Shown: piece after piece, positions 434 through 32,185 of the stretch | Layout: every line of letters begins with the position of its first letter | Position numbering within the stretch: the first letter of the stretch is position 1 | Assembly (NCBI GenBank): GCA_003156795.1 | Contig: PMHU01000182.1 | Span: forward strand, 366-34,541 | Source of the DNA: Acidimicrobiaceae bacterium | GTDB lineage: Bacteria > Actinomycetota > Acidimicrobiia > Acidimicrobiales > Palsa-688 | DNA length: 34,176 nt | Direction of reading: 5' to 3' | Made by a program: the position numbers and the translations under genes | Notes under the pieces: model-generated | Told to the model about the DNA's origin: nothing | The model's input: only the letters and a program-made list of their open reading frames with translations | The model's database searches: none

Positions 434-1894
434 TCAGGCGACAGGCCCGTACGGGTTAGGCCTCACCCGACTTCTCTCGAAAACTTGATCCGTTGTCGCA
501 CGCTTATCGCTCGACGTTTGCCGAGAGGCCCCGAGGATGGCGTCCGAACCGTCCGCCACGGACCGGTTACCGACGAGGTGGTCGATGGTGGTGGTTCGTT
601 CGCGTAGGAGGTCTCCTACCATCGCGGCCAGGCGCGTGTCGCGGGCGCCGATCATCTGCCAGGCACGGGCGATGGCGATCATGAAGAACACGATGATCAG
701 TAGGGCCTGGAGGTGGACGGTGCCTGTATCTGTCGGATTGAGCAACATGTCGATTCCGTTGAGGAGCTGGATGATATATAGGGCTCCGAGCGCGGGGATG
801 ATGGCGAGGCCCCACAGGTGGCGGGCTCCGGGCCAGTTTCGTTGTGTGAGTCCAGCCATGCCGATGGTCGAGCTGATTCCGGTGCAGGCCAGGAACACGC
901 TGGCGGAGCCGAGGTCGTTGCCGGGGAGGACGGCGACTAGCGCGACGACTAGTGCGTTCAGCAGGGTCGTGAATGCGACGGCGGCCTGGACCTGGAACGT
1001 GAGCGGGGCGCGTTTGCCGACGTCGTTGTGGGGGGACACCGATATGGCCACGAACAAGAGGTCGATGAGAGTGCCGGCGACGGAGGCGCAACCTTCGAAG
1101 TAGGTGGCCTCGACGACCTCCTCGCCGGTAACGCCCGCGAAGGTGTCCCAGGCGGCAGATCGTGTCTTGCCGCTGCCCGGCGGCAATCCGTTCTCCGGGC
1201 TGCTGTAGGCGCCCACCGAGACGATCTTGTGATCGTCGCTCACCACGGCGATCCCGCACACCATGGCCCGCGTCCCCTCGACGGCGTGGCGGGCTAGGCC
1301 AGCCAGGATCTCGCCGGTCGGCCCCGTTCCGACCAGTTGGGCGGTGGTTTGGGACAGGGCCACCGCGGTGCGGGCGGCCGCCCGGGGGCCGGTGATGTCT
1401 TGGAGTATGGCCACACCGTGGGGGCTCCCGTCGATGTCGATGGCGAACATCAAGCAGACCATCTCGCGCTCTGAGCCGTCGGCGCCGTACAGCACAGAAG
1501 TGAACCGGGCGGCCGTACCACCAACCGTCTGGGGGAGGTGGGCGACCAAGGTGGCGTGCTCTCGGGACGGGAAGGTGTCCAGAAAGTCCCGGCCCCGCAA
1601 CTGCTCGAGCGGATGGCCGAACATCTGACATGCCGCCGGGTTGGCATAGACGTAACGCCGGTCGGCGTCGACTAGGCACAGCCCATCGTCTGTGCCGACC
1701 AGCAGGCCGGCCAGTGCTGGCAGGCCCAGCGCGGCGGCGGCAGCCAAGGCCGAGGAGGCGCCGATGACATCCGGGTTACGGACCGTGGCAGCAGCTCCGG
1801 TGGTCTTCACCTCATTCGTCACAGCATCGGTCACGACCCCGACAGCCTCCCACAGCCATCCGGGAACCAGAGCGCCCGCCTGACAACACCCCAA
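434..1894 (-). CDS. PAS domain sensor with a GAF-like segment and a C-terminal multi-pass membrane domain; no recognisable output domain
   Basis: 486-aa ORF. PAS core: GLCLVDADRRYVYANPAACQMFGHPLEQLRGRDFLDTF...GVAILQDIT. A GAF-like stretch follows (ILAGLARHAVEGTRAMVCGIAVVSDD), then about 5 hydrophobic helices (e.g. LWGLAIIPALGALYIIQLL, LQALLIIVFFMIAIARAW). The longest ORF starts at a TTG, so the true start is uncertain. Confidence 0.65.
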   Translation of the reverse strand: MGCCQAGALVPGWLWEAVGVVTDAVTNEVKTTGAAATVRNPDVIGASSALAAAAALGLPALAGLLVGTDDGLCLVDADRRYVYANPAACQMFGHPLEQLRGRDFLDTFPSREHATLVAHLPQTVGGTAARFTSVLYGADGSEREMVCLMFAIDIDGSPHGVAILQDITGPRAAARTAVALSQTTAQLVGTGPTGEILAGLARHAVEGTRAMVCGIAVVSDDHKIVSVGAYSSPENGLPPGSGKTRSAAWDTFAGVTGEEVVEATYFEGCASVAGTLIDLLFVAISVSPHNDVGKRAPLTFQVQAAVAFTTLLNALVVALVAVLPGNDLGSASVFLACTGISSTIGMAGLTQRNWPGARHLWGLAIIPALGALYIIQLLNGIDMLLNPTDTGTVHLQALLIIVFFMIAIARAWQMIGARDTRLAAMVGDLLRERTTTIDHLVGNRSVADGSDAILGASRQTSSDKRATTDQVFERSRVRPNPYGPVA

Positions 1895-2011
1895 TTATGG
1901 TGAAGGCCACCAGTTTGATTGGGCTGCCGGCTTTCGCCGTCAACGTGCCGATTCTGTTTCAGATTGTCCCAGGACCGTCCCGATTAGAACCGGGGCCTCG
2001 AGGCCGTAATT

Positions 2012-2818
2012 TCATTTGTGGGCCAGGTGGATGGCCGCCTCCGGTGTGTTGATGCGGAATGCGAGGCTCTCTTCGATGTAGAGGTGCACGTCATCGGCGT
2101 CGGCCCTGGAGAAGCCGATCGAGAAGTCCTGTCCTACGGTCATCTCGAAGTCCCCGCCTCGTTGACTCACGATTACGGCACCGTCCACGGCGGGCGCCCA
2201 AATGACGTCGCCTCCAAGGATGTTGCGTAGATGTTCGAATACGGGATATCCGCCGTGTTCGGTCGTCTCTGTGACACCCGTGAAACACCGTGGTCCCATC
2301 GCTATCGCATAGGGTCCGGCGACGCCAGCGTCGCGCAGCAGCGCAACCGCCTTGGCCACATGCTGGGGGTAGTGGGCGTAATCGTCGCCTATGGTAACCG
2401 CCTCGTGCGGCGACGACGGGACGATCCCGGAGATGCCGCCGGCCCCGTAGCCGTGAAAGATCGCTGCGTCCTCGGCCAAGGCCGCTGATCGGCTGGCACC
2501 GATAACGGCAGAGAGATCGAGGTCGCGGGCGCCGCGCTCGGCTTCCGCCAGTTCGACCGACGTTATAGAGAACGGGGCCCGAAACTCGACGATGGGGAGC
2601 ACTTTGCGTCCAGCTGCTTCGACACCCTCGGCCGAGAGCTCAGACAGGGATTCTGTGCGCCCGAGGCCGACCGAGGAGTACTCCCACCCGAGAGGGCCGG
2701 TGAAATCAATCAGCCGTCGCGCCGCCAGATAATGCTTCAGCGATCTGCGCGCTTCGGCATCGATCTGCTCCCAGGCCGCGTCCGAGATCGGTGCAAGCTC
2801 GCGCAACAGGTGGTTCAT
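2012..2818 (-). CDS. Family 1 encapsulin nanocompartment shell protein (linocin M18/HK97-fold type)
   Basis: The 268-aa product matches my recollection of the T. maritima and M. tuberculosis encapsulins along its length: MNHLLRELAPISDAAWEQIDAEARR..., GPLGWEY, LPIVEFRAPF, DAGVAGPYAIAM, IWAPAVDGAVIVSQRGGDFEMTVGQDFSIGF, HLYIEESLAFRI. An SD-like GAGAGGGAGA lies ~8 nt upstream of the ATG. Confidence 0.95.
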   Translation of the reverse strand: MNHLLRELAPISDAAWEQIDAEARRSLKHYLAARRLIDFTGPLGWEYSSVGLGRTESLSELSAEGVEAAGRKVLPIVEFRAPFSITSVELAEAERGARDLDLSAVIGASRSAALAEDAAIFHGYGAGGISGIVPSSPHEAVTIGDDYAHYPQHVAKAVALLRDAGVAGPYAIAMGPRCFTGVTETTEHGGYPVFEHLRNILGGDVIWAPAVDGAVIVSQRGGDFEMTVGQDFSIGFSRADADDVHLYIEESLAFRINTPEAAIHLAHK

Positions 2819-3549
2819 TAGAGTCTCCCTCTCTCATTTCGTAGGCTTCCGATGCCGAGACTGGTGTCGCCCGGGCCAAGTCTGGCCAATGGATTTGGAA
2901 TGGGTTCGGCAACCTTGTGCAACGTGTTGCGATCGACGTGGTGGAACGGCACTTCGCGCCCCGGGATTTCCAGCACTCCCTCTTCCTCGTACGACCAGGT
3001 CCCATCGTCGTTGACCGTTACGTGAATCCGGTAGCTGGTCGTCCGAAATGCCCGATCAAGGAATGGGTTGGAAAGGATGCCGTGGACTTCGGACCCCAGG
3101 GCTGCAGTGAGTTCAAACTCCTTGGCGTCGACGTCGACTGATCCTGCAGCAAGCAGCACTTGCCCTCTAGGGATCGCAAGGGTGAATGTAACCATGGATG
3201 CCGCTGGTTCCCAGAGCCAGTAGCCGATCTGATCGTGGAACGTCACTATCTGACCGGGTTCGACGATGTGGGTGTGGTAGCGCAAGCCGTAGAAGAGCTG
3301 GGGTCCGTTCGTCTGGAAATCGATTGGTTGGAGCTCGTAGTGCTCGACGAACACGCTGTGCTCGGACCCGTCGGCAACCGGATGGTCGTCAGATCCTTTC
3401 GTTCCCTCCCAGACCCCGGCAAGGGGCCGCAGCGGTCCGAGGCTGTTCAAAGTGTCCGGATCCCCGGGCGGCTCGGTATAGATATCAGTGCCGTAGGGAT
3501 CTGACGCCGTTTGGCGTACCCCGGACTCCACTCGATCGACGATGGCCAC
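2818..3549 (-). CDS. Nitrobindin-like haem-binding beta-barrel protein (THAP4 haem-binding/former DUF1794 type) with a C-terminal encapsulin cargo-loading peptide
   Basis: 243 aa. Nitrobindin-type landmarks: LRPLAGVWEGTKG, FYGLRYHTHI, IGYWLWEP, SYRIHVTVNDDGTWSYEEEG, and a candidate proximal His in FHHVDRNTLHKV. A Pro/Gly-rich linker (EPIPNPLARLGPGD) leads to TSLGIGSLRNERGRL at the C-terminus. The TAA stop overlaps the encapsulin ATG (TAATG). The start is a GTG without a clear SD, so the 5' end is uncertain. Confidence 0.85.
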   Translation of the reverse strand: MAIVDRVESGVRQTASDPYGTDIYTEPPGDPDTLNSLGPLRPLAGVWEGTKGSDDHPVADGSEHSVFVEHYELQPIDFQTNGPQLFYGLRYHTHIVEPGQIVTFHDQIGYWLWEPAASMVTFTLAIPRGQVLLAAGSVDVDAKEFELTAALGSEVHGILSNPFLDRAFRTTSYRIHVTVNDDGTWSYEEEGVLEIPGREVPFHHVDRNTLHKVAEPIPNPLARLGPGDTSLGIGSLRNERGRL

Positions 3550-3674
3550 GGGGATACTCTTGCACGCGGGCGCCGATCGTCACCGCGGGTCCGGCTAGGC
3601 GTCTGCCGAGTCCCCCTGAAGGTATGGCTCGGTGGTGATCGGGCGGACGAGCCCGGAGTGTGCTTGGAACCCAG

Positions 3675-5624
3675 TTACGTTCCCGAGACGGCGCGTTCTC
3701 GGCGGGCGCGGGCGGCCTTCTTGGCTTCGTACATGGCTTGGTCGGCTTGGCGGACGAGCGTCATGGGATCGGTGTCCTGGTCACATTGGGCGAGGGCGAC
3801 GCCGACGCTGGCCTCCAAGGGAACGACGCCCGCCTTCACGGAGATCCGGCACTGCGCCACGGCCTGACGGATTCGCTGCACCACGGTATCCCCGTCGCAG
3901 CTGTGGCCGTGGCACAGCACGACCAGGAACTCATCGCCGCCCAGGCGTCCGACCACGTCGCACGCGTCGGTGACGCGGGTGAGGGCCATTGCGGTGGCGG
4001 TGATGGCGGCGTCGCCTGCCTCGTGCCCGTAGACGTCGTTGATGGGTTTCAGGCCGTCGAGGTCGATGAACAACACGGCCACTGTCTCACCAGCCTCTCG
4101 GCGCCGACTCACGTCGTCGGTGAGATACTCGAGCACCGCACGCCGGTTGAGCAGCCCCGTGAGCGCGTCGTGGGTGGCCGCCTCGTGCAGGAGCTGGCGT
4201 TGCACCTGCCGCTCGTGTATCCGGTCACTGAGGGCGTCGATCGATACCTGCAGGGCCTGGCCGGTCCGGCCCGGCAGGGGTTTGCGCAGCTCAGGATCGG
4301 AGAGGTCCTCAGCCGCCAGGCCGACGGCCTTCTCCTCGACGGCCTTCAGGGTAGAGGCCATGTCGTTGAACGCGGCGATCGTGGTCACGACCTCTCTGGG
4401 ACCTTTGTCGGCCAGGGGTTCCAGGTCGAACTCCCCGTTGCTTACTTGCAGGGCGCCGGCCGCCAACCTCTTCAGCGGCTGGGTGAGCATGCGACCGGCG
4501 GCAAGCACGCCGCTGATGCAGAGGAGCGCCAGAAGGGAGAGGAAGACGATCTCGTCGGTGAGTTGGCGGGTGGCGGCAGAAGCCTGGGCCATGGCGGTGT
4601 CGTGGAGGTCCTGGGAGGCCGAGGTCACGAGGCTGTTCAAGTCGGCCAGGTAGTTGAGCGAGGGCGCCAGGGCGGAGCCGCTGAAAGCCAGGTTGCCGCT
4701 CAGCGACGGCTTCGTACCGTTGACTGCGACGGTGACTGCCTTTTGGATGGTGGCGGCGAAGCGCACGTCGGTGGGGGCGGTCTGCAGGTGGCGCCATGCC
4801 TGCTCGGCCTTGGGGCCCAGCTGGCCGGCGAACTCACCTTCTGCGGTCTGGTATTCGCCGGCGGCCTGGATCAGTTGCTGCTTGGCGTTGGCGGGACCGA
4901 CGCCTTCGAGGACGTAAGCGGAATCCCCGATTTCGTTTCCGCCGGCCAGGAACGCTTGGTAGGTTTGCAACAGTGCGGCCATATGCGCTTCGAAGGACGC
5001 CGGGGGCCGCCAGGACTTGATGTCGGTCTGGAGCTGGTTGTAGTCCCGGTACCAGATGTCGTCGATGTCTGAGTCGGTCTTGACGAAGAAGGCGTTGACC
5101 CGGTCGAACGAAATGGTCCCGGCGACTATTGCGGGGATGATCGCCTGCAACTGCGAGATGTCGGCCCGCATGGTCGGCGTCGACGAGAGGGTGGGATAGC
5201 TCGCCAGGATGGTCGCACCCTGCGCCAGCTGGTCCTGGAAAGGCACGGTCGGGTGCAGCAGGTTGTCCAGTACCGATATGCTGATGCCGAGCTGGGCGGC
5301 GTAGGACACCGCCGTGAACGGCAACTGGAAGCTACTCAGCTTGGCCCTGGCCGAGGCGACCACCGCCAGCTGGGTTGCGTCTTTGGCTGCTTTCCCAGCG
5401 TCGCGGTGGGCTCCCCAGGCAGAGGTGGCCGAGGAGGCGACGAGGATGCAAGTCGCCAGCATCGGGATCAGGACCACCGAGATCAGCAGGAACCGTACGC
5501 CCAGGTGGTGTCGCCCGCTCTTCGGAATGGCGGGCAACTCCAGAGCTGTCCCGTTTAGAGAGATCAACTTGGAGGGGCCTGGCGGGGAGCCAGTGCCGGT
5601 TCGGTTGCGGGTTGGATCCGCCAT
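3675..5624 (-). CDS. Membrane-bound diguanylate cyclase (TM, large extracytoplasmic helical sensor, TM, HAMP, GGDEF)
   Basis: TM1 is FLLISVVLIPMLATCILVA; a ~300-aa extracytoplasmic region follows; TM2 is IVFLSLLALLCISGVLAA; a HAMP-like segment is RMLTQPLKRLAAGALQVSNGEFD...FNDMASTL. GGDEF domain: HDALTGLLNRRA, LFIDLDGLKPINDVYGH, GRLGGDEFLVV, ADQAMYEAK. The start could be the ATG at 5624 or the GTG at 5633. Confidence 0.9.
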   Translation of the reverse strand: MADPTRNRTGTGSPPGPSKLISLNGTALELPAIPKSGRHHLGVRFLLISVVLIPMLATCILVASSATSAWGAHRDAGKAAKDATQLAVVASARAKLSSFQLPFTAVSYAAQLGISISVLDNLLHPTVPFQDQLAQGATILASYPTLSSTPTMRADISQLQAIIPAIVAGTISFDRVNAFFVKTDSDIDDIWYRDYNQLQTDIKSWRPPASFEAHMAALLQTYQAFLAGGNEIGDSAYVLEGVGPANAKQQLIQAAGEYQTAEGEFAGQLGPKAEQAWRHLQTAPTDVRFAATIQKAVTVAVNGTKPSLSGNLAFSGSALAPSLNYLADLNSLVTSASQDLHDTAMAQASAATRQLTDEIVFLSLLALLCISGVLAAGRMLTQPLKRLAAGALQVSNGEFDLEPLADKGPREVVTTIAAFNDMASTLKAVEEKAVGLAAEDLSDPELRKPLPGRTGQALQVSIDALSDRIHERQVQRQLLHEAATHDALTGLLNRRAVLEYLTDDVSRRREAGETVAVLFIDLDGLKPINDVYGHEAGDAAITATAMALTRVTDACDVVGRLGGDEFLVVLCHGHSCDGDTVVQRIRQAVAQCRISVKAGVVPLEASVGVALAQCDQDTDPMTLVRQADQAMYEAKKAARARRERAVSGT

Positions 5625-5873
5625 AGCTCCCACAAGTTGTCGTCACGCGGGGCTCTCTTCTTGAGCTATGAGGCCTATATGGCGGGCGCTGTCGTGGTTC
5701 CCGTCTCGCCCGCCCCAGACCGGCTGACCGGACTGACCCGAGTCATACCGATGACAGCCGTGACGATGCGGTACCGGGGGCCGCTAGGAGCTCGTCCATG
5801 CCCGCTCCGATGCCCTCCGCCATGACGTCGACATCCGGGGCATGGTCGTAGTCGCCGGTAACCTATAGACCCA

Positions 5874-17184: not shown

Positions 17185-17423
17185 ACGGTGACGCTACAGC
17201 TGACGCAGCGACCGACGGTGCAATGGAAGGCTCGCGGGTGCCCGACAACCGCGCCGGCTGACGGGCCTTGCTCGTCGGAAGGGACCGGGCGGCGTTCGAG
17301 CGACGCCGGGACCATGCATCCGGCTCGCCGACCTTATGGTGCATTTCGGGCTGGCCGGCGCCGGCGCTTCTTGGTCGCTTGGATCGGCAGTGCAGACCAG
17401 CGTCAATCGTGTCACCATTGGGC

Positions 17424-19007
17424 ATGACAGAACCGCGGTACAGCCGTAGGCAGGTATTGGCTGGGGGTCTTTCCTCCATGGTGGCACTGGGTGTTTCCAG
17501 GTCCAGCGTGCTAAGCGGGAACCGGAGTGCCATGCTCAGGGCCGCGGCAGCGGTGCGGCCGAAGGGCTCGGATTTGGGGGCGGTCGAGCACGTGGTGTTC
17601 CTCATGCACGAGAACCGTTCCTTTGACCACTACTACGGCGTGCTGGGAGGCGTGAACGGCTTCGACGCCAATTCGACGGCCTTCGCCCAGTCCTGGCCGG
17701 GGGGGCAAGACGCGACCCTATTGCCATTCCATCTCGACACCGCCACGACCATGGCGGAATGCACATACGACCTGTCGCATTCGTGGCAGGCCGAGCATGC
17801 CTCCTGGAATGGCGGCGCCATGGACAGCTTTGTCTCCACCCATACATCGAGTGACTACGAGGGCCAAGATCTCGGCACCATGACCATGGGCTACTACGAC
17901 AGTTCGGACCTGCCCTTCTACTACGACTTGGTGCAAAACTTCACGATCTGCGACAACTACTTCTGTTCGGTGCTCGGGCCGACGCATCCCAACCGACTAA
18001 TGCAGATGACAGGCACCTTGGATCCGGCTGGCGTTGCTGGTGGACCGATCCTCGTTACCAACTCCAACAACGATCTGGAGTTCACGTGCTCGTGGACCAC
18101 GATGCCCGAGGTGCTCGCCGATGCCGGCGTGACGTGGAAGGTGTACAACCCCTACGGCCCGAACTACAGGCCAGGGCACGCCCTTTCCATGACTCTGTGC
18201 AAGAACGTGCTGATGTATTTCCAGCAGTACCAGAAGTCAGTGAACCCCACCCTTTATAAGAACGCCTTCAACTACTACGGGCCGAACGTTCCCGCCAGCG
18301 ATCCGGGCCTTACGGGGGGCATGGGCCCAGACGACTTCGCCAGTGACGTGTTGCACAACACGCTTCCCGCCGTGTCGTGGATCATCCCGCCCGACGGGTA
18401 CGACGAGCATCCCCCGGCGCCGGCTTCGCTCGGCGAGTGGTACACGTCGAAGGTGTTGACGACCCTGATGTCCAACAAGGAGGTGTGGGAGAGCACGGTG
18501 GTGTTCATCATGTACGACGAGAACGATGGATGGTTCGACCACGTCTCACCGCCGTTCCCGTCTGATCCCAGCACCGCAGGCGAATATGTCACCGCATCCT
18601 CGGACTCAGCCAGCTACCCCGGCCCCATTGGGCTCGGGGTACGGGTACCCATGCTGGTCGTGTCTCCATTCAGTGCGGGAGGATGGGTGTGCTCGGACAC
18701 CTTCGACCACACATCGCAGCTGCAATTCGTGGCGGAACGATTCGGAGTCACCATCCCGAACGTCTCGTCGTGGCGGCTAGGTACCGTCGGCGACCTCACT
18801 CCCGCCCTGCCGACGCTCGGAACGCCGATCAACAAGCGCCCCACCTTGGCGGCGACACACCACAGCGTCGACAAGCCCCCCATCGAGGGGGAGTGCAACG
18901 CCAGCCAGCTAATCGAGCTGAACCCCACGACGCCGGCCTACCCGATTCCGATGCCTCAGACTCAGCCCACCCAAGGGCCTGACACCCTCATGCCCACTCC
19001 GAGCTGA
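17424..19007 (+). CDS. Tat-secreted phosphoesterase-family phospholipase C (non-haemolytic PLC type, catalytic domain only)
   Basis: The ATG at 17424 gives MTEPRYSRRQVLAGGLSSMVALGV (a twin-arginine signal). PLC landmarks: VEHVVFLMHENRSFDHYYG, LPFHLD, DLSHSWQAEHASWNGGAMD, TMPEVL, YDEHPP, ENDGWFDHV, GVRVPMLVVSPF. The upstream 52 codons of the ORF are probably not translated. Confidence 0.9.
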   Translation: MTEPRYSRRQVLAGGLSSMVALGVSRSSVLSGNRSAMLRAAAAVRPKGSDLGAVEHVVFLMHENRSFDHYYGVLGGVNGFDANSTAFAQSWPGGQDATLLPFHLDTATTMAECTYDLSHSWQAEHASWNGGAMDSFVSTHTSSDYEGQDLGTMTMGYYDSSDLPFYYDLVQNFTICDNYFCSVLGPTHPNRLMQMTGTLDPAGVAGGPILVTNSNNDLEFTCSWTTMPEVLADAGVTWKVYNPYGPNYRPGHALSMTLCKNVLMYFQQYQKSVNPTLYKNAFNYYGPNVPASDPGLTGGMGPDDFASDVLHNTLPAVSWIIPPDGYDEHPPAPASLGEWYTSKVLTTLMSNKEVWESTVVFIMYDENDGWFDHVSPPFPSDPSTAGEYVTASSDSASYPGPIGLGVRVPMLVVSPFSAGGWVCSDTFDHTSQLQFVAERFGVTIPNVSSWRLGTVGDLTPALPTLGTPINKRPTLAATHHSVDKPPIEGECNASQLIELNPTTPAYPIPMPQTQPTQGPDTLMPTPS

Positions 19008-24700: not shown

Positions 24701-25144
24701 CTATTGGAGGCCGGTCTCCAGGCTGAAGCCTTCGTCCTTCCAGCCCTCGATCCCGCCGATCATCTTCTTTACCGGGCGACCGAGTTGGGCCAAGCGGACC
24801 GCAGCCTTATCTGCTCCGTTGCAGTGCGGTCCGGCGCAATAGACGACGAAGAGGACGTCTGGGCCGCACGGTTCGAGCTTTCGCTGGTTGATCCGGCGGT
24901 GGGGGAGGTTGATCGCCCCCGGCAGGTGGCCCGCAGCAAACAGCTCCGGGCTGCGGACGTCGAGCAGCACGAATCCTGGATCTGGCAGGTCCAGTGCTTG
25001 GTGCACGTCCCAACAGTCGGTCTCGTAGGCCAGGAGCGCCTCGAAATGGCGCAAGGCGTGGTTGGAGGCCGCGGCGGGGACGGCAGTCACGGCGTTGGCG
25101 GTCGATAGCTCCGGCACGAAACACAGCATCGCGCGCCGGGCCAT
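24701..25144 (-). CDS. Rhodanese-like domain protein (putative sulfurtransferase)
   Basis: FVLLDVRSPELFAAGHLPGAINLP, an active-site loop VVYCAGPHCNGA, and IGGIEGWKDEG. The start could be the ATG at 25144 or the next Met. Confidence 0.85.
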   Translation of the reverse strand: MARRAMLCFVPELSTANAVTAVPAAASNHALRHFEALLAYETDCWDVHQALDLPDPGFVLLDVRSPELFAAGHLPGAINLPHRRINQRKLEPCGPDVLFVVYCAGPHCNGADKAAVRLAQLGRPVKKMIGGIEGWKDEGFSLETGLQ

Positions 25145-25211
25145 GCTCGACTCTCTACATTTTGCGGCGGTCGGGCTGGAGGTGTCGGAGCGGACGGCGA
25201 GGATCTCGTGA

Positions 25212-28200
25212 TCAGGTCGTCGGAGGCGGGGCGACCTCGCCTTGCAGGACCGTCCCCACCCGACCGGCTCCAAGAAGAGCCTCGTAGCCGTTGGACAGGG
25301 AGGCGATCGCAAAGCACTCGCCCGTGGTTGGACAGGCGATCGCGGTTATCCCGGTGACGCCCACGGGGATGGGTTGGGCGGCCCAGTCGCCCGTTGAGAC
25401 AGGGCGAGTAGGGACGGCAGAGCGGGCGATGGAAGTCGTGGCCGTCGTCGATGCCGCGGTGGTCGACGTGCTGCTCAACACGCCGGCGGCGGCCGTCAAG
25501 TGGAGCGTTCTGTACATCTCGGTCACCGTCGTATTCGAGGCGGAGGAGCCGGCAGGCACGAACTGGCCGGCCAGCCAACACACCTTCGTGGTGACGCACT
25601 CAATGGCGGTCAGGGCCCGCACGCCGGCGGGGATGGCGACGTCCTGCCAGGCGGCCACCCCAGAGGAATCGATGGTCCCATCTAGCAGTTGAGGGCCCGA
25701 CGCTCCCGTGGCCAGGAGCAGACACTGTGAGGGTCGCGGGCAGGTGATCGCTCCGACGTCCTGGGTGCCGAACGGCACAGGGAGCGTCGCCCACGTGGAT
25801 CCAGACCGGCGCAGCACCTCGGGTTGGCCGTTGACCTGAACGCTGACCAGGCAGATCGTCGGTTGGGGGCAGGCCAGACCGGTCACCGACTGGACGCCGG
25901 CGGGCAGCGGGATCGTCACCGGGTTGCCGGGGCCGGACAGTTGGAGCCGCACTACGGTGGCCCGGTTGGCGGAGGTGGTGTTGCCGGCGGCCACGCACGC
26001 GGCGGAGGTGCACGACAGCTCAGCTAGACCGCCGATTGCCGGGTCGCTCGCCTCGATGGTCGAGTAGCCCCCTCCGGGCGCCAGGCCGACGAGCACCCCC
26101 ATGGGGCTGCTGGTGGGCAGGATGAAAGCCCCCAGGTGGTTTCTCGTCAGGTCGGGGAAGGCGCCCGAGGCGTAGCAGTCCGTGGCGGTAAGACACGAGA
26201 GGGCCGACACCGTCAGCTTGGGCCCATAGAAGTCCACGGCCCAGCCGCTCCCCCCGTCGGTCGTGAAACCTACGCCGCTCTGGCCCGAGAGCCAACAGCC
26301 CGCGGCGCCGGGACAGTAGATGTCGGGGACGAACGGCATGGTCTCCGGGGCGAGATGAACGGCCCACGTGACCCCCCCGTCAGCCGTGGACAGGAAGTAC
26401 GGCGAGCCGCTCGAGCTCTCGAGACCGCCCCACTCGACCGTCCCGTCGACCAAGCAGGATGTCGGCGTCCAGCAGGATACGGAGTCGAAGCCGTACGGCT
26501 GGGGAAATGACGGGAAGGCCACGCGCGACCAGGTCGCGCCCCCGTCGGTGGTCCGGTTGATCGTGCCGATCTGGCTCTGCAAGCTGTTGGTGTACTCGCC
26601 GACGACCCAGCAGACGCTGGCGTTGACGCAGTCGACGGAAGCTGCGGTATAGAGCAGGCCCGGCAGGCCAACGGACGTCCACGTGGCACCGGAGTCGTGG
26701 GTGGCCTCGGCCGTCCCGTCGGCGATCCCCACGCACGAATCGGCCGTGGAGCAGGAGATGGTGGTGATGGGTCCTGACCCGTTGGGCGTCGGGACTTGCG
26801 TCCACTGGCCCCCACCCGAGTTCTTGAAAAGGCCGGATCTGGATGCGGCCCAACACTCGGTGGCGCCGGGTACGCAGCTGACTCCAGTAAACGCTCCTGT
26901 CCCCGAAGGGAGCGAAGCGGCCCGCCAGGTGAGGCCGCCGTCGGCCGTGGCGAGAGCGGTGGCGTCGCCGGACGACGTCGCTCCGACCGCGATGCAATAG
27001 GTGTCGGAGGCGCAAGAGATGTCGGCGATGGTCCCGCCGCCGGCGGGAATTTGGGACAAGGTCCGCTGCCCGCCAGGTCCGAGGATCAGGATGGCTGAGC
27101 CGAGGTCGACCCAGCAGTGGGTGGCGTCCGGACAGGTGACCTCGGTCGCCTGGCCTGACCCGGACACGGTGGTGAAGGCGCCGGCGACAGCGGCCGGAGA
27201 CCCGATCAAAGACAAGGCGGTCGCCACCCCGCCGACGACGGCGACGGTCGCGACAGCAGACACCGGGTGGGCGGTAGCGGCGTGGTGGACGCGCGACGCC
27301 AACCGCCGGATGCGGCGAAGACGCCCGCTGGTCGGAATCGAGGGGCCGGCGGACGCAGCTGCGCTGGACCCGCCGGCCAGTTCTGTAGCGCCGGCGCTCA
27401 GGGCTCCGATCACGGCGCCGGCCACGGCCGCGAGGGACGCCCGCCTGCGCCAGTCGGGTCCGTAGCCGGCTTCGGCCGCCTCGCCCAGTTCGGCGAGAAA
27501 CTCTTCAGCCGTCGCGGGCCGGTCCCCTGGACTCTTCGACAACGAGCGGGCGACCAGATCTCCGACTGGATCCGGTACGCCGTGCAGGCGCGGCGGCGGA
27601 GAGTCCCGGTGGGCGGCGGCCACCGCCCCGGCGGTGCCGACAAATGGCGGCCGGCCGGTCAGGAGCTCGTAGAGGATCAGGCCGGCGGCGTAGACGTCGG
27701 AGCGGGCGTCGACCGGTTCGTCACGGAGCGCTTCGGGAGAGGCGTAGGCGGGGGTGCCACCAGACGGCTTGGAGCCGGTTGGGCCGGCCTGGCCGAAGTC
27801 GACGAGCTTGGATACGCCTTCTTCGGTGACGATCACGTTCTCGGGCTTGAGGTCGCCGTGGACGACCCCCAGCCGGTGGGCCGCGGCGAGCCCTGACAGG
27901 GCCCCGGCCAGGACGCCGAGGGACTGTTCGGGGGTGAGGCGTCGTCCGTCCTTCACGACTTCGCGCAGCGGTGCGCCGGGCACGTACTGCATGACCAGAT
28001 AGGCCCCGCCGTCCCGTTCGACGTAGTCGTAGACGTCCACCAGGTTCTCGTCGTCGAACTGGGTCATGAGGCGGGCTTCGGCTCGGAAGCGCTCCCGGAA
28101 CCCGGGTGCATCCAAGCGCCATGCTGCGAGCACCTTGACCGCCACGTCTCGGTCGGTCGAGGACTGGCGAGCCAAGTAGACGGTGCCGGTGGTGCCCGAT

Positions 28201-28265
28201 CCGAGGACCCGGCTGAATTCGTAGCCTGGAAGGAACGGAAGGTCGTCCGTCCTGGTGCCCGACAT
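25212..28265 (-). CDS. Receptor-type Ser/Thr protein kinase (non-RD, HGD) with TM segment(s) and a large Asp-box (BNR)/Cys-pair beta-propeller ectodomain
   Basis: Kinase motifs: LGSGTTGTVYLA, VAVKVL, VVHGDLKPENVIV, VDFGQA, TPAYASPE. Hydrophobic segments: ASLAAVAGAVIGALSAG and VSAVATVAVVGGVATALSLIG. The ectodomain has Asp-boxes (TADGGLTW, THDSGATW, TTDGGATW, TADGGVTW, TTDGGSGW) and 13 C-x(4-6)-C motifs. The preferred start is the ATG at 28265 (GAGGGGG lies 6 nt upstream). An alternative ATG at 28310 sits 1 nt after the upstream stop. Confidence 0.9.
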   Translation of the reverse strand: MSGTRTDDLPFLPGYEFSRVLGSGTTGTVYLARQSSTDRDVAVKVLAAWRLDAPGFRERFRAEARLMTQFDDENLVDVYDYVERDGGAYLVMQYVPGAPLREVVKDGRRLTPEQSLGVLAGALSGLAAAHRLGVVHGDLKPENVIVTEEGVSKLVDFGQAGPTGSKPSGGTPAYASPEALRDEPVDARSDVYAAGLILYELLTGRPPFVGTAGAVAAAHRDSPPPRLHGVPDPVGDLVARSLSKSPGDRPATAEEFLAELGEAAEAGYGPDWRRRASLAAVAGAVIGALSAGATELAGGSSAAASAGPSIPTSGRLRRIRRLASRVHHAATAHPVSAVATVAVVGGVATALSLIGSPAAVAGAFTTVSGSGQATEVTCPDATHCWVDLGSAILILGPGGQRTLSQIPAGGGTIADISCASDTYCIAVGATSSGDATALATADGGLTWRAASLPSGTGAFTGVSCVPGATECWAASRSGLFKNSGGGQWTQVPTPNGSGPITTISCSTADSCVGIADGTAEATHDSGATWTSVGLPGLLYTAASVDCVNASVCWVVGEYTNSLQSQIGTINRTTDGGATWSRVAFPSFPQPYGFDSVSCWTPTSCLVDGTVEWGGLESSSGSPYFLSTADGGVTWAVHLAPETMPFVPDIYCPGAAGCWLSGQSGVGFTTDGGSGWAVDFYGPKLTVSALSCLTATDCYASGAFPDLTRNHLGAFILPTSSPMGVLVGLAPGGGYSTIEASDPAIGGLAELSCTSAACVAAGNTTSANRATVVRLQLSGPGNPVTIPLPAGVQSVTGLACPQPTICLVSVQVNGQPEVLRRSGSTWATLPVPFGTQDVGAITCPRPSQCLLLATGASGPQLLDGTIDSSGVAAWQDVAIPAGVRALTAIECVTTKVCWLAGQFVPAGSSASNTTVTEMYRTLHLTAAAGVLSSTSTTAASTTATTSIARSAVPTRPVSTGDWAAQPIPVGVTGITAIACPTTGECFAIASLSNGYEALLGAGRVGTVLQGEVAPPPTT

Positions 28266-28311
28266 GCCCAACCCCCTCGCTGCCCCTCCGTCTCGCCAGC
28301 TGCCGGCCATG

Positions 28312-29622
28312 CTAGGCCGCGGCCAGTTCGGGTTCCCGAGCGAGGCCCAGGATCGGGGCGATGTCGCCGAGCACATCGAAGTCGGGGCTAAGGGTCCGGC
28401 ACAGCCCGCTGATGTACAGCATCTGCTTGAAGAAGGCCACGAGTGACTCCGGCAGGGCGAAGCCGTTGCGGGATGCGAGTTGGAGGATGGCGCCGATCGC
28501 GTCTCGCACGTCGATGCCGGCGAGCGGCTTGTCGATGAACTCACCAATCAGAGCCTGGACTTGAGGTATCACCGAGGTCAGGTCGATGCCGCTCGGATCG
28601 ACGATCTGGAACATGGCCATGACCGCGTCGCCGAAGCGCCCTTCGGCTAGAGCGGCGAGAAGGTCGGAGGTGGCGGGCCTGACGATGTCGTCGAGGTGGG
28701 CGATCACTCCGAAGTCGAGCAGTCCCAACCGGCCGTCGTCGAGCACGAGCATGTTGCCAGGGTGCATGTCGGCATGGAAGACACCGCTTCCGAGGGCTGG
28801 TACGAGGAGGGCGGATATGACCGACTCGACCACGTGTGAACGGTCGATGCCGAGTCCCTCGACGGCCTCGACGTCGTCGGCGCGAGCGCCTCGCAGCCGC
28901 TCCATCACCAGTACCCGTTCGGTGGACAGCTCTTCGTACACGGCGGGGACTTTCACCGGCAGGAAAGATAGGGCGAGCGCCATCCCCCGCGCGTTGGCGG
29001 CCTCGCCGCGGAACGAGAGCTGCTCCTCGAGCCCCCGAGCGAAGTCGTCCACCAGAGCCATGGGGTTGGCGGCCGCGCAAGCCGACGAAAAGCGGGCGGC
29101 CAGCCTCGCCGCGGTGCGGAGCAGGCGGATGTCCTCGGACAAGAGCTTCTCCAAACCAGGGCGCTGCACCTTGACCACGACCGGGGTTCCGTCTGCGAGC
29201 CGGGCGGTATGCACTTGGGCCATGGACCCGGCGGCGAGCGGCTCGGGGTCAACGTCGACGAGTTCGGCGCGGTTGGCGCCCAACTCTTCGGCCAGCAGTT
29301 CGGACACCGACCGCCAAGGCGCGGGTGGAACGTCGTCGCGACAGTGGGCCATCTCGTTCACCCACGTCTGGGAGAGGGGACCGGCCGAGGAGGACATCAG
29401 CTGGCCGGCCTTCACGAAGGTCGGGCCCAGGCGCTCGAACGCCTTTCTAACTCGGTGGGCGAGGAGGGCATCGGCGTCCGCCCCCCGCCGGGTCAGGCGG
29501 TCGAGAGCGGTTCCGACCACGATCCTGGCCGCGGCCAGGGCGAGGGCGATCACCCGGGTGAGGGGGAGTCCGGACCGGTTGAAAGGGTGGCTGGCGGGAG
29601 GCTTGGTCACGTTCCTAAGCAT
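28312..29622 (-). CDS. ABC1/UbiB-family atypical protein kinase
   Basis: LGPTFVKAGQLMSS, AAGSMAQVHTARL, VVKVQRPG, GVFHADMHPGNMLV, LGLLDFGVIA. The ATG at 29622 gives MLRNVTKPP.... The longer ORF up to 29865 would overlap the divergent FHA gene. Confidence 0.9.
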   Translation of the reverse strand: MLRNVTKPPASHPFNRSGLPLTRVIALALAAARIVVGTALDRLTRRGADADALLAHRVRKAFERLGPTFVKAGQLMSSSAGPLSQTWVNEMAHCRDDVPPAPWRSVSELLAEELGANRAELVDVDPEPLAAGSMAQVHTARLADGTPVVVKVQRPGLEKLLSEDIRLLRTAARLAARFSSACAAANPMALVDDFARGLEEQLSFRGEAANARGMALALSFLPVKVPAVYEELSTERVLVMERLRGARADDVEAVEGLGIDRSHVVESVISALLVPALGSGVFHADMHPGNMLVLDDGRLGLLDFGVIAHLDDIVRPATSDLLAALAEGRFGDAVMAMFQIVDPSGIDLTSVIPQVQALIGEFIDKPLAGIDVRDAIGAILQLASRNGFALPESLVAFFKQMLYISGLCRTLSPDFDVLGDIAPILGLAREPELAAA

Positions 29623-29706: not shown

Positions 29707-30357
29707 GTGCGCCGCTACCATCGGCGGACGGTGGATGCCTTCCTCGAACCACGCGGGTCGGCGGCGGCCGGGATCGTCGCCCTGACCAAGGACCGCACCA
29801 CCATCGGCCGGGCCGCCGAGGCGGACTTGAGCCTGGAGTCGGACGGAACCGTTTCGAGGTTGCACTCGGCGATCGAGCGCTATCCCGGCGGCTGGGTGCT
29901 CAGGGACTTGGGTTCGTCGAACGGGACGTTCGTCAACGGCGAGCGCGTCGTCGGCGACCGTCCCCTCAATTCAGGCGACGAAGTCAGGGTGGGATCGTGC
30001 GTGTTCCTTTTTCACAGCGGAAGCGGCCAGGTCGACGAGTTGGAGACGGTGCAGGGGAGCCCGCCGCCAGTTCTGACCAGGCGGGAACACGAGGTGCTGG
30101 TCGAGCTGTGCCGGCCGCTCGTCGACCGGACGACCGCTTTCGGCCGGCCCAGCTCGGTCGCGGAGATCGCGGCGCGCCTGTACATCGGGCAGGCGACGGT
30201 CAAGTTCCACTTGGACAACCTGTTTGACAAGTTCGGTTTGTTGGAGCCGGGGGAAGGGCGCCGGTTGGCCCTGGCCAACGACGCGCTACGCCGCGGGGCC
30301 GTCAGCTTGGCCGAACTTCGCCAGGCGTCCGGGTCCGGCGGGGGCTCCATCCCCTGA
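29707..30357 (+). CDS. FHA domain / LuxR(GerE)-type HTH fusion regulator
   Basis: FHA domain: TIGRAAEADLSLESDGTVSRLHSAIERYPGGWVLRDLGSSNGTFVNGERV...GDEVRVGSCVFLF. C-terminal HTH: LTRREHEVLVELC...SVAEIAARLYIGQATVKFHLDNLFDKFGL. The GTG start at 29707 follows GGAGGGG; an alternative GTG is at 29731. Confidence 0.85.
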   Translation: MRRYHRRTVDAFLEPRGSAAAGIVALTKDRTTIGRAAEADLSLESDGTVSRLHSAIERYPGGWVLRDLGSSNGTFVNGERVVGDRPLNSGDEVRVGSCVFLFHSGSGQVDELETVQGSPPPVLTRREHEVLVELCRPLVDRTTAFGRPSSVAEIAARLYIGQATVKFHLDNLFDKFGLLEPGEGRRLALANDALRRGAVSLAELRQASGSGGGSIP

Positions 30358-30377: not shown

Positions 30378-31868
30378 ATGACCATCGCCGCCAAGGAGCT
30401 CGACCGGCTGAGAGAAGCCGGCTACGTGGTGGAGGACGAGATCGGGAGGGGAGCGTCGGGGGTCGTGTACCTCGCCACTCAGCAGCTGCTGGCCCGGCGG
30501 GTCGCGCTCAAGCGCGTCGGGTTCGACCCGGCCGCCGGGGAGACGGTGCGGAGGCGCCTCGACACGGAAGTGGCGGCGCTGGTGGCGCTGGAGCACCCAG
30601 GGGTGGTTCGCCTCATGGATGTGCAGAGGTATCCAGGGGCGCTGTGGTTCGTGATGGAGTACGTCAACGGACCGTCGCTCCGACAGGTCCTGGACTCGAC
30701 CACCTCCGGTGTCAGGCCACCTGAAGCGCTGCGAATATTGGAGGAGCTGACCGGAGTCCTGGACCACCTGGCCAGCCGCGGGATCGTCCACCGGGACCTG
30801 AAGCCGGCCAACGTGTTCCTCACCGCGGACGGGCGGACCAAGGTCGGCGACTTCGGAATCGCCCTCGTCCATGCGCCGGAGGGAACGGCCGACGCCCTGG
30901 GCCGTCTGACCCAGCCGGGGGTCGTCATCGGGACTCCGGCCTACCTCTCGCCCGAGCAAGCCGGCGGCCGCGACGAGCTCGGGAGTGCGTCGGACCTGTA
31001 CAGCTTGGGCGTGATGGCGTACGAGCTCTTGGTAGGGCGCGTCCCGTTTTCCAGCCCCGGCAACGTCCTCGCCCTCCTGGCCGCCCAGGAGACCGAGCCA
31101 CCTCCAGCCCCGCGCAGCATCCGGCCGGAGCTGAGCCGGGCGGTCGAGGCGGCGCTCCTCGGCCCGCTGGCCAAGGCCCCATCCGACCGGCCTCCGAGCG
31201 CAGGGGCTTTCTGGTCGCAGCTCGAACTGGCGGCCGAGGAGGCGTGGCCCCGATGGCGAGCGTCGGCAGACACCGTGGCCCTGTCCGGTCGCTTGGCCAG
31301 GGGGAGCCGCCCAGTGCGGGCCACCGGGGCCCAGGACGACGCCACCGTAGGGGCGACGGGCGACGGCCTGGCGGCAGAGTCAGTGGTGGCTTCGAGCGGG
31401 CCGGCGTCCGCCGAGCGCGGCGACGAGCCGCAGCCGCCGCCCCGAGTGGATGCACGCCCCCCGCCCAAGCGCGGCGGCGCCCAGAGGTGGGCGCTCCCGG
31501 CGGTCGTGTTCGTGGTCGCGGTGGTGGGGGGCTTCCTAGCGGTCCGGGCCGTGACGGCCAAAGGCGCCGCGGGGCTGAGGGTCGCCTCGATGAGCCTGGC
31601 CTTCCAGCCCGCTCCATCCGGGTGCGCAGTCGTCGCCCGCCTACAGACCAACGGCGTCCGGGGGCGGCTCAGGTACGAGTGGGCGGACGGTGGCGGTCCA
31701 CCGCCGGTCGAAGGTTCGTTGACGGTCAGCGGCCGACCGGTGGTGGTCGTCGACCATAACCTCGATGGCACGACCGCGGCCGGGCCGGCAGCCACGACCG
31801 TGACCTTTTCACTCCTGAGTCCGGGGCCGACGCGACGAGAGTCCCTCCCCGTGCCAGCGAGCTGCTGA
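30378..31868 (+). CDS. Ser/Thr protein kinase (RD type) with a single TM and a small extracytoplasmic domain
   Basis: IGRGASGVVYLA, VALKRV, IVHRDLKPANVFL, VGDFGIA, GTPAYLSPEQ, DLYSLGVMAYELL. TM helix: WALPAVVFVVAVVGGFLAVRAV. It starts 20 nt after the FHA-LuxR stop. Confidence 0.92.
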   Translation: MTIAAKELDRLREAGYVVEDEIGRGASGVVYLATQQLLARRVALKRVGFDPAAGETVRRRLDTEVAALVALEHPGVVRLMDVQRYPGALWFVMEYVNGPSLRQVLDSTTSGVRPPEALRILEELTGVLDHLASRGIVHRDLKPANVFLTADGRTKVGDFGIALVHAPEGTADALGRLTQPGVVIGTPAYLSPEQAGGRDELGSASDLYSLGVMAYELLVGRVPFSSPGNVLALLAAQETEPPPAPRSIRPELSRAVEAALLGPLAKAPSDRPPSAGAFWSQLELAAEEAWPRWRASADTVALSGRLARGSRPVRATGAQDDATVGATGDGLAAESVVASSGPASAERGDEPQPPPRVDARPPPKRGGAQRWALPAVVFVVAVVGGFLAVRAVTAKGAAGLRVASMSLAFQPAPSGCAVVARLQTNGVRGRLRYEWADGGGPPPVEGSLTVSGRPVVVVDHNLDGTTAAGPAATTVTFSLLSPGPTRRESLPVPASC

Positions 31869-31894: not shown

Positions 31895-32185
31895 TCAGGG
31901 ACGGCCGATGGAGCAGAGGATGACGAACTCGAGGATGACGGCGATGATGCCGAGCACTAGGCCGGCGGTGGCCACGCCTCGCTGGCCCTTGTCGGTGAGG
32001 GCGGCCCGGCCGCCGCGTACGCCGGTGAAGATCGCCGTCGCCGCAGTGGCCACGAACAACCATCCGCCCCAGCAAAAGATGACCGACACGATGCCGGCGA
32101 CGAGCGCCGCTACGGCCATGCCGTTGGTTCCACTGTTTCGGTCGGTCCCGGAGATGGCATTGGTTGGGATGGAATCGGTGTTCAT
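31895..32185 (-). CDS. DUF4190-like small membrane protein
   Basis: 96 aa with two long hydrophobic helices (MAVAALVAGIVSVIFCWGGWLFVATAATAIF and GVATAGLVLGIIAVILEFVIL) after a short polar N-terminus. This is the DUF4190 architecture. Confidence 0.7.
   Translation of the reverse strand: MNTDSIPTNAISGTDRNSGTNGMAVAALVAGIVSVIFCWGGWLFVATAATAIFTGVRGGRAALTDKGQRGVATAGLVLGIIAVILEFVILCSIGRP

Follow-up and report, generated by a model that had tools for sequence, protein, structure and literature searches.

The window analysed here is the whole 34,176-nucleotide stretch of contig PMHU01000182.1, and the subject of this report is a gene on its minus strand that encodes a 1017-amino-acid (aa), single-pass receptor Ser/Thr kinase. 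From the N-terminus, the protein is predicted to comprise a kinase domain, a linker, one transmembrane (TM) helix and a double-propeller ectodomain. To our knowledge, sensor domains other than PASTA have been identified in only very few bacterial receptor Ser/Thr kinases, and a ligand is known for hardly any. A preliminary description of this DNA had proposed that 25215-27203 encodes a kinase ectodomain built from Asp-box propeller blades, each with its own cysteine pair. This interval proved to be exactly the C-terminal 663 residues of the receptor.

The receptor gene, its kinase domain and its topology

The gene and its N-terminal features were as follows.

25215..28265, minus strand: the whole receptor gene, encoding kinase, linker, TM helix and double-propeller ectodomain (from the open reading frame, its start, the base composition at third codon positions and an identical metagenome protein)
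27504..28223, minus strand: Hanks-type protein kinase domain, residues 15-254 (Pfam Pkinase, E = 6.3e-45, 154.1 bits against a cut-off of 31.7)
27837..27860, minus strand: catalytic loop HGDLKPEN, with Gly in place of the Arg of HRD (non-RD)
27381..27440, minus strand: Ala/Gly-rich, moderately hydrophobic juxtamembrane segment, residues 276-295 (Kyte-Doolittle 1.4-1.8; below the threshold in relative P0009)
27189..27263, minus strand: predicted single TM helix, residues about 335-359 (hydropathy of 2.0-2.45 on the Kyte-Doolittle scale throughout the family; preceded by an Arg-rich stretch)

The enclosing mechanical open reading frame extends over 25212-28547 (minus strand). The ATG at 28265 (MSGTRTDD...) was taken as the most plausible start because of the position of the kinase domain, the purine-rich GAGGGGG a few bases upstream and the use of the same start in orthologues. 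The GC content of the gene was 0.84 at third codon positions, compared with 0.65 and 0.61 at the first and second, and a protein from a JGI metagenome (P0001) was identical to the receptor.

The kinase motifs were intact (GSGTTGTV, VAVK, HGDLKPEN, DFG and SPE) and were conserved across the kinase-fused relatives. The form HGD[LV]KPEN was found in all of the intact kinase-fused relatives examined, the exception being P0123, in which the motifs are degenerate. By its catalytic loop the receptor kinase is non-RD, and from its motifs the domain appears to be catalytically intact. Matches of the gene to the PADLOC models PD-T4-6 and mad6 were rejected as evidence of a role in defence, since they cover the generic kinase domain only.

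The juxtamembrane segment at residues 276-295 is followed by a low-complexity linker and then by a conserved Arg-rich stretch, RLRRIRRLASR; this segment is probably part of the linker and not a TM helix. The Arg-rich stretch lies on the N-terminal side of the hydrophobic segment at residues 335-359, and by the positive-inside rule we therefore infer a single TM helix there, a cytoplasmic N-terminus and an extracytoplasmic C-terminal region of 660 aa.

The ectodomain: cysteine pairs and predicted fold

The features of the ectodomain are listed below; "ectodomain residues" are counted within the C-terminal 663 aa.

within 25314..27134, minus strand: 13 cysteine pairs (27114-27134, 26994-27014, 26853-26876, 26733-26753, 26610-26630, 26454-26474, 26295-26315, 26175-26195, 25995-26012, 25851-25871, 25722-25742, 25578-25598 and 25314-25334)
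26925-26948, 26679-26702, 26529-26552, 26364-26387 and 26241-26264, minus strand: five Asp-boxes, all within propeller 1
26226..27173, minus strand: propeller 1, seven blades, ectodomain residues 11-326, with cysteine pairs 1-7 and all five Asp-boxes (AlphaFold2 strands and Ycf48 alignment)
25266..26213, minus strand: propeller 2, six blades, ectodomain residues 331-646, with cysteine pairs 8-13 and no canonical Asp-box (AlphaFold2 strands and pair spacing)
25383..25505, minus strand: Ser/Thr/Ala-rich disordered insert in blade 12, ectodomain residues 567-607 (predicted local distance difference test score, pLDDT, below 50 for 585-601)

All 13 of the cysteine-containing peptides quoted in the preliminary description were found in the translation, and its statement that no cysteine stands unpaired was correct: the 26 cysteines all lie in 13 C-x4-6-C pairs between residues 378 and 984, and the kinase domain has none. 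Eleven of the pairs are C-x5-C, one is C-x6-C (CVPGATEC) and one is C-x4-C (CTSAAC). When 26 cysteines were placed at random over 663 positions, all of them fell into disjoint pairs in 0 of 200,000 trials. A plain shuffle count of C-x4-6-C matches (13 observed, maximum 11) was uninformative because overlapping matches were counted, and it was replaced by this all-paired test and by the co-variation table given below. The intervals between successive pairs were 40, 46, 41, 41, 52, 53, 40, 61, 47, 43, 48 and 88 aa; ten of the 12 agreed with the spacing of about 40-55 aa that had been proposed, but those of 61 and 88 aa did not. There was no DNA-level tandem repeat in the receptor gene, and the periodicity of the pairs is therefore that of an old protein-level repeat. 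Five Asp-boxes ([ST]xDxGxxW) were present at residues 440, 522, 572, 627 and 668, all in the first half of the ectodomain; as originally described, four are canonical and one, TTDGGSGW, is degenerate in that it lacks the Thr.

The ectodomain was modelled with AlphaFold2 from a 48-sequence alignment. The model had a mean pLDDT of 86.2 and a predicted template modelling score of 0.78, and was all-beta with about 13 four-stranded blades; disorder was limited to the Ser/Thr-rich insert (ectodomain residues 585-601) and the final 14 residues. In agreement with the propeller architecture proposed from the sequence, the blades were predicted to form tandem propellers of seven and six blades. The suggestion of one cysteine-paired hairpin per blade also matched the model: in each of the 13 blades the pair brackets the strand 1-2 hairpin, with the first cysteine where strand 1 ends and the second where strand 2 begins, or close to these points. 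As in sialidases, the Asp-boxes fell at the turn between strands 3 and 4. The picture of Asp-box blades was upheld in part, in that five blades carry a box, all in propeller 1; however, only these 5 of the 13 blades keep one, and propeller 2 has none.

The spacing of the cysteine pairs was near-invariant in 13 kinase-fused relatives, and only the last interval varied. A decayed 14th blade, suggested by the 88-aa gap and by the 14-pair consensus of a MAFFT alignment, was considered and rejected; the last interval ranges from 53 to 113 aa among orthologues (88 here, only 53 in P0009), and the insert is therefore regarded as variable rather than as a decayed blade. With this spacing, the 13 pairs of the kinase-fused clade are best read as seven plus six blades.

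The guess that BNR/Ycf48-type proteins would be the relatives was supported by both fold and profile searches. The top matches of a Foldseek search against the PDB were GH74 xyloglucanases (E = 4e-16 to 1e-12, TM score 0.27-0.49, identity 9-15 %, probability 1.00; TM score 0.43-0.49 for those at E of about 4e-16), followed by the two-propeller protein Aip1 (TM score 0.58) and by Ycf48 (TMt 0.62 for a single propeller, probability 1.00). A family profile matched Ycf48 (E = 3e-14), GH74 (E = 4e-10) and also GH33 sialidases in the PDB, and the single sequence matched Ycf48 at E = 0.003. The NCBIfam model NF010237 (PRK13684, Ycf48) scored 22.8 bits against a cut-off of 326. No Pfam NHL or PASTA match was obtained in the ectodomain, and the NCBIfam PknB_PASTA and PknD matches covered the kinase domain only. 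By its predicted fold the ectodomain is a member of the BNR/Asp-box (Ycf48/GH74-like) superfamily. The module had not been recognised in the preliminary description as a characterised sensor of bacterial kinases; consistent with this, neither the entries of Pfam, NCBIfam and the PDB nor the open-access papers that were found describe such a sensor, and the open-access literature gave no description of a Ycf48/BNR-type or ladder module as the sensor of a kinase or anti-sigma factor. The regular series of pairs, termed here the Cys ladder, was present in none of the solved structures.

Co-variation of the cysteines was tabulated at 14 pair positions in 48 homologues. Both cysteines were present in 639 cases, neither in 30 and a single one in 3. 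The pair columns were common to 47 homologues and were invariant or nearly so in sequences of 20-58 % identity. Among 233 ladder proteins, 6018 of 6594 cysteines were paired, and the spacer was five residues in 93 % of 3009 pairs. A strongly hydrophobic segment lay within the first 60 aa of 61 of 87 non-kinase ladder relatives; the visible N-terminal segments look like signal peptides, lipoboxes or N-terminal anchors, and these proteins appear to be exported. One structural disulfide per blade is accordingly probable, because of the both-or-neither pattern and the exported relatives. A comparable arrangement is known from CyRPA of Plasmodium falciparum, a six-bladed sialidase-fold propeller with five intra-blade disulfides (PMC5349852).

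The ladder family and the five-gene module

When 1.84 billion cluster representatives were scanned exhaustively with HMMER, 5133 matched at E <= 1e-3; of these, 1362 reached E <= 1e-10 and 107 reached E <= 1e-30. The ladder was found in 135 of 140 newly retrieved top representatives, and overall in at least 233 of the 260 relatives retrieved. The number of pairs per protein had modes of 7 and 14, with some proteins having 21 and 27-28; stand-alone relatives typically had 14 pairs with a median spacing of 46 aa. The blade consensus of the family, VSCxSxxxCxAVG...DGGxTW, is shared by the receptor ectodomain. In their sources the relatives are labelled "photosystem II stability/assembly factor-like", "YCF48-related" or "WD40/YVTN/BNR-like", and the hosts named include Acidimicrobiales, Solirubrobacterales, Frankiaceae, Coriobacteriia and Chloroflexota. 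Their partner domains were TIG, PKD, FN3, Big, dockerin, CHB_HEX_C, phosphoesterase and PASTA. A phosphoesterase of family PF04185 (phospholipase C / acid phosphatase family) is also encoded in the window, at 17268-19007 on the plus strand, and PF04185 was fused to Cys-ladder propellers in P0036, P0037 and P0040, once also with PASTA.

The ladder propeller had been presented as a kinase ectodomain. Fusion to a kinase does exist, in a small clade, but the ladder is not special to the kinase and mostly occurs in stand-alone exported proteins; since it is so widespread there, the novelty lies in the kinase fusion and the gene module rather than in the ladder. The kinase-fused clade comprised P0001-P0010, P0124, P0143 and fragments, with ectodomain identity down to 36 %, and was set apart from the stand-alone proteins by a sharp drop in E-value. 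This clade probably belongs to the Acidimicrobiales. Propellers of this type are common in actinobacteria, though unstudied there; fused to a kinase, they are rare. A scan of GTDB with the ectodomain, using exact peptide patterns, revealed no close relative, and among the 25-31 % identical relatives that it did reveal no kinase was seen, their neighbourhoods being unexamined. The module was found in metagenome-assembled genomes at NCBI by way of its FHA-LuxR gene.

Two further arrangements were observed. The metagenomic protein P0123, a member of the fused clade, has degenerate kinase motifs (HGCMTPSR and DVG), lacks the Gly-rich loop and contains a long linker rich in Gly, Ala and Ser; it is a pseudokinase version of the receptor. 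Two seven-pair, single-propeller relatives, each with a TM helix and its N-terminus in the cytoplasm, are encoded directly downstream of extracytoplasmic function (ECF) sigma factor genes (L015 62-2094; L016 3421-5359); from this position they are putative anti-sigma factors with the same type of ectodomain.

The genes beside the receptor in the window were as follows.

28312..29622, minus strand: ABC1/UbiB-family atypical kinase, 436 aa, 46 nucleotides upstream of the receptor gene on the same strand (Pfam ABC1, E = 7e-58; NCBIfam UbiB, E = 1.6e-81, below cut-off)
29707..30357, plus strand: regulator with FHA and LuxR/GerE helix-turn-helix domains (FHA-LuxR), divergent from the ABC1-receptor pair (Pfam FHA, E = 4.5e-18; GerE, E = 9e-7; probable start GTG at 29731)
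30378..31868, plus strand: second Ser/Thr kinase, RD (HRDLKPAN), with one TM helix and an ectodomain of ~100 aa with two conserved cysteines (Pfam Pkinase, E = 4e-42)
31895..32185, minus strand: DUF4190-like small membrane protein, 96 aa, convergent with the RD kinase gene (open reading frame)
24701-25312, minus strand: rhodanese-domain open reading frame, starting within or just past the receptor 3' end

All five module genes (receptor, ABC1/UbiB, FHA-LuxR, RD kinase and DUF4190-like) were called in the window and in related loci L001, L007, L008, L009 and L012, with differing flanking genes. The module was incomplete elsewhere: L011 had no called FHA gene, L013 and L014 no called ABC1 gene, and L010 only the FHA-LuxR neighbour. 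The ABC1/UbiB gene held the same position in L001, L007, L008, L009, L011 and L012, as did a gene for 92-93 aa in the place of the DUF4190-like gene, with weak or faint DUF4190 annotation in L007, L011 and L012. A separate 89-aa DUF4190 gene lies farther off in L009. The FHA-LuxR gene adjoined the receptor gene in the window and in eight loci (L001, L007-L010 and L012-L014), and its products were 60-87 % identical across related loci; its family has >1000 clusters, those named being mostly from Acidimicrobiia or Acidimicrobiales, so that an Acidimicrobiales origin of the window is most probable.

The partner kinase had HRD[LI]KPAN in 6 of the 6 loci examined. Its two-cysteine ectodomain of ~95-110 aa was intact in 4 of the 6, the copies in L008 and L009 being shortened or truncated. 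One of the conserved cysteines is ~25 aa past the TM helix and the other is the last residue, so placed that the tail looks like a small disulfide-closed domain. The pairing was constant in the loci examined, with an RD partner kinase and an HGD receptor kinase. In L008 (4962-9343, on a long ENA contig) the ABC1 and receptor genes were each split into two calls, P0006 being the C-terminal 780 aa of the receptor; these splits are likely to be frameshift errors of a long-read assembly and not real truncations. A gene encoding PAS, GGDEF and EAL domains lies close to the receptor gene in L001.

Elsewhere in the window, 2012-3549 on the minus strand holds an encapsulin shell gene (Linocin_M18, E = 1.5e-88) and, preceding it with a stop/start overlap, a gene for a THAP4/nitrobindin-like haem-binding beta-barrel protein (PF08768, E = 2.5e-21). 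The C-terminus of the nitrobindin-like protein, ...DTSLGIGSLRNERGRL, resembles an encapsulin cargo-targeting peptide, which suggests that it may be an encapsulin cargo. The two genes lie between one for a PAS-domain protein (434-1894) and one for a diguanylate cyclase with HAMP and GGDEF domains (3675-5633), and the whole group (434-5633) is on the minus strand.

Possible ligands, signalling and significance

Several known systems resemble the receptor in part. PknD of Mycobacterium tuberculosis is a receptor Ser/Thr kinase with an extracellular six-bladed NHL propeller (Good et al. 2004, as given in PMC6213207). As described in that source, it likewise joins a Hanks kinase at the cytoplasmic N-terminus, by way of one TM helix, to an extracellular propeller sensor, but its single NHL propeller belongs to an unrelated repeat family, whereas the receptor has two BNR/Ycf48-type propellers (7 + 6) with a Cys ladder, is non-RD and shares its gene module with FHA-LuxR and another kinase. 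Ycf48/HCF136 (PDB 2XBG, 5OJP and 8AM5; seven-bladed) shares the blade motif ...sF...Gw.vG..g.i..T.DGG.tW, but has a single propeller, with Phe and Gly-Trp at the positions of the receptor's cysteine pair. It functions in photosystem II biogenesis, whereas the receptor ectodomain is joined to a kinase and its source is most probably an actinobacterium that does not photosynthesise (Acidimicrobiales); the related loci are named by their sources as Acidimicrobiales or Acidimicrobiia. With scores under the cut-offs, two propellers and a fused kinase, the receptor ectodomain is not a Ycf48 orthologue. Nor can it be filed as GH74: the xyloglucanases (5FKR, 2CN3 and 1SQJ) also have tandem Asp-box propellers, but theirs are 7 + 7 and belong to secreted enzymes that have a catalytic cleft, whereas the receptor is 7 + 6 and kinase-tethered.

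A functional analogue is BT4663, a Bacteroides hybrid two-component sensor whose periplasmic tandem seven-bladed propellers bind disaccharides on their entry faces (PMC5121618). Compared by description, it too is an extracytoplasmic tandem-propeller sensor that signals to a kinase across the membrane; it differs in having Reg_prop repeats with a Y_Y_Y domain, a histidine kinase output and no Cys ladder. CyRPA is a structural precedent, an Asp-box-type propeller without enzyme activity that is stabilised by sequential, local disulfides, one to a blade (PMC5349852), but it is eukaryotic and has a single propeller and no regular C-x5-C. The receptor ectodomain is itself a member of the unnamed Cys-ladder family of Actinomycetota and Chloroflexota, whose proteins have the same per-blade C-x5-C motif; these are mostly stand-alone, with 7, 14, 21 or 27-28 blades, compared with 13 in the kinase-fused clade.

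Taken as a whole, the locus is moderately well explained as encoding a non-RD receptor kinase with a disulfide-stapled double-propeller sensor that signals with the RD kinase and FHA-LuxR. The C-x5-C disulfide of each blade would close the hairpin of the two innermost strands and so rigidify the exported propeller. Ligand binding would alter the oligomeric or conformational state of the receptor, and the non-RD receptor kinase would act with the co-encoded RD kinase. Phosphorylated Thr residues on one or both kinases might then recruit the FHA domain of the adjacent FHA-LuxR protein and alter transcription, with the co-transcribed ABC1/UbiB protein and the DUF4190 membrane protein as putative conserved accessories. 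Signalling from Ser/Thr protein kinases to FHA domains is known in mycobacteria, as outlined for example in PMC4238996.

The most conserved part of the ectodomain was located as follows, from per-residue identity in 10 kinase-fused orthologues mapped on the AlphaFold2 secondary structure.

26274..26636, minus strand: most conserved part of the ectodomain, ectodomain residues 190-310

This part consists of the extended hairpins that join strands 2 and 3 in blades 5 and 6 (GEYTNSLQSQIG and EWGGLESSSGS) and the connections from blade 5 to 6 and from blade 6 to 7 (FPQPYGFD and APETMPFVPD), whereas propeller 2 was poorly conserved among the orthologues except for its Cys and Trp residues. From propeller topology, residues 190-310 would be on the "top" face, and the strand 1-2 staples on the face opposite the usual binding face. 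Since all of these loops would be on the top face, they are proposed as the ligand site; on the model, binding is more likely at these conserved loops of blades 5-7 in propeller 1, or else in the cleft that separates the two propellers. The leading guess for the ligand is a glycan or cell-envelope fragment, because of the structural neighbours and partner domains and by analogy with BT4663.

Some observations weigh against this explanation. The Pfam PSII_BNR model was below its gathering threshold on the receptor (22.3 against 27 bits), and in about half of the blades the DSSP register would put the paired cysteines diagonal to, and not directly opposite, each other. The second, weaker hydrophobic segment (residues 276-295) is also conserved; were it in fact to span the membrane, the propellers would lie in the cytoplasm, where disulfides are unlikely. 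The proposed link from the kinases to FHA-LuxR comes from gene adjacency only, and the TIG, PKD, dockerin, CHB_HEX_C, phosphoesterase and PASTA fusions of the stand-alone relatives are the only hint that the biology concerned may be that of the cell surface or of glycans.

Four alternatives and one broader proposal were considered. The propellers could instead bind a protein or peptide, in the manner of Ycf48 and D1; candidate partners are a secreted peptide, the DUF4190 protein and the extracytoplasmic part of the RD kinase encoded in the same module. Ycf48, the closest solved sequence relative, is an assembly factor that binds peptides and proteins (PDB title "YCF48 bound to D1 peptide"), and the conserved genes of the module include those for a small membrane protein and for an RD kinase whose ectodomain is small. 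This alternative, which overlaps the favoured explanation and differs from it in ligand class only, is possible though on balance unlikely. Somewhat more doubtful is a broader proposal in two parts: that the module resembles a plant pattern-recognition receptor system, with a non-RD receptor of large ligand-binding ectodomain, an RD "co-receptor" of small ectodomain and docking sites for FHA-LuxR that the two would phosphorylate together, and that the Cys-ladder propeller is a general and hitherto unrecognised extracytoplasmic sensor of Actinomycetota serving Ser/Thr kinases, pseudokinases and ECF anti-sigma factors.

The cysteine pairs might be functional rather than structural, either as a redox sensor in which 13 strained cross-strand disulfides switch the conformation of the propeller, or in binding metal. 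Selection on the pairs is extreme, and a C-x5-C motif over a tight hairpin gives a cross-strand disulfide, a type that is generally known to be often redox-labile. The rhodanese gene directly downstream of the receptor would also fit; as a redox partner it was rejected, since it is not conserved beside the receptor in other loci. The same ladder, however, occurs in hundreds of stand-alone exported proteins with diverse partner domains, which argues for a generic stabilising role; by topology the staples are away from the conserved loop patch, and the pairs are in separate blades, unlike what we take to be the usual geometry of a Cys4 metal site. A redox or metal function was consequently considered improbable.

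A slightly poorer case can be made for a membrane-tethered GH74-like or sialidase-like glycoside hydrolase on whose activity the kinase reports, or which it regulates. The top structural matches were GH74 xyloglucanases, GH74 and GH33 sialidases were among the profile matches, there was a weak NCBIfam match to the F510_1955-family glycosylhydrolase (E = 4e-5), and stand-alone relatives carry dockerin or CHB_HEX_C domains. On the other hand, GH74 identity was only 9-15 % and the TM score only 0.27-0.49, all hydrolase family scores were far under their cut-offs, and propeller 2, which would supply half of the GH74 cleft, is six-bladed here and poorly conserved. Ycf48 and CyRPA show, moreover, that the fold often occurs without catalysis (PMC5349852), and an enzyme is quite improbable. 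That residues 276-295 and 335-359 are both TM helices, leaving the C-terminal domain cytoplasmic and its cysteine pairs reduced in vivo, is very improbable: most members of the family do have both hydrophobic segments conserved, but the first is Ala/Gly-rich, reaches only 1.4-1.8 and is below the threshold in P0009, the loop between them is strongly Arg-rich and by the positive-inside rule cytoplasmic, homologous propellers have signal peptides or lipoboxes, and the both-or-neither conservation of the cysteines is the pattern expected of disulfides.

If the disulfide-stapled receptor explanation is correct, the ectodomain would be a new type of sensor, a stapled tandem BNR/Ycf48-like propeller drawn from a large exported family that has been mislabelled as "photosystem II assembly factor-like". 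The hosts are uncultured (probably Acidimicrobiales), which is a practical limit; FHA-LuxR as the read-out would make the compact, conserved five-gene pathway tractable. The fixed pairing of a non-RD with an RD kinase raises the question of receptor and co-receptor in these bacteria, and the per-blade C-x5-C staple may represent a simple natural design rule for propeller stability.

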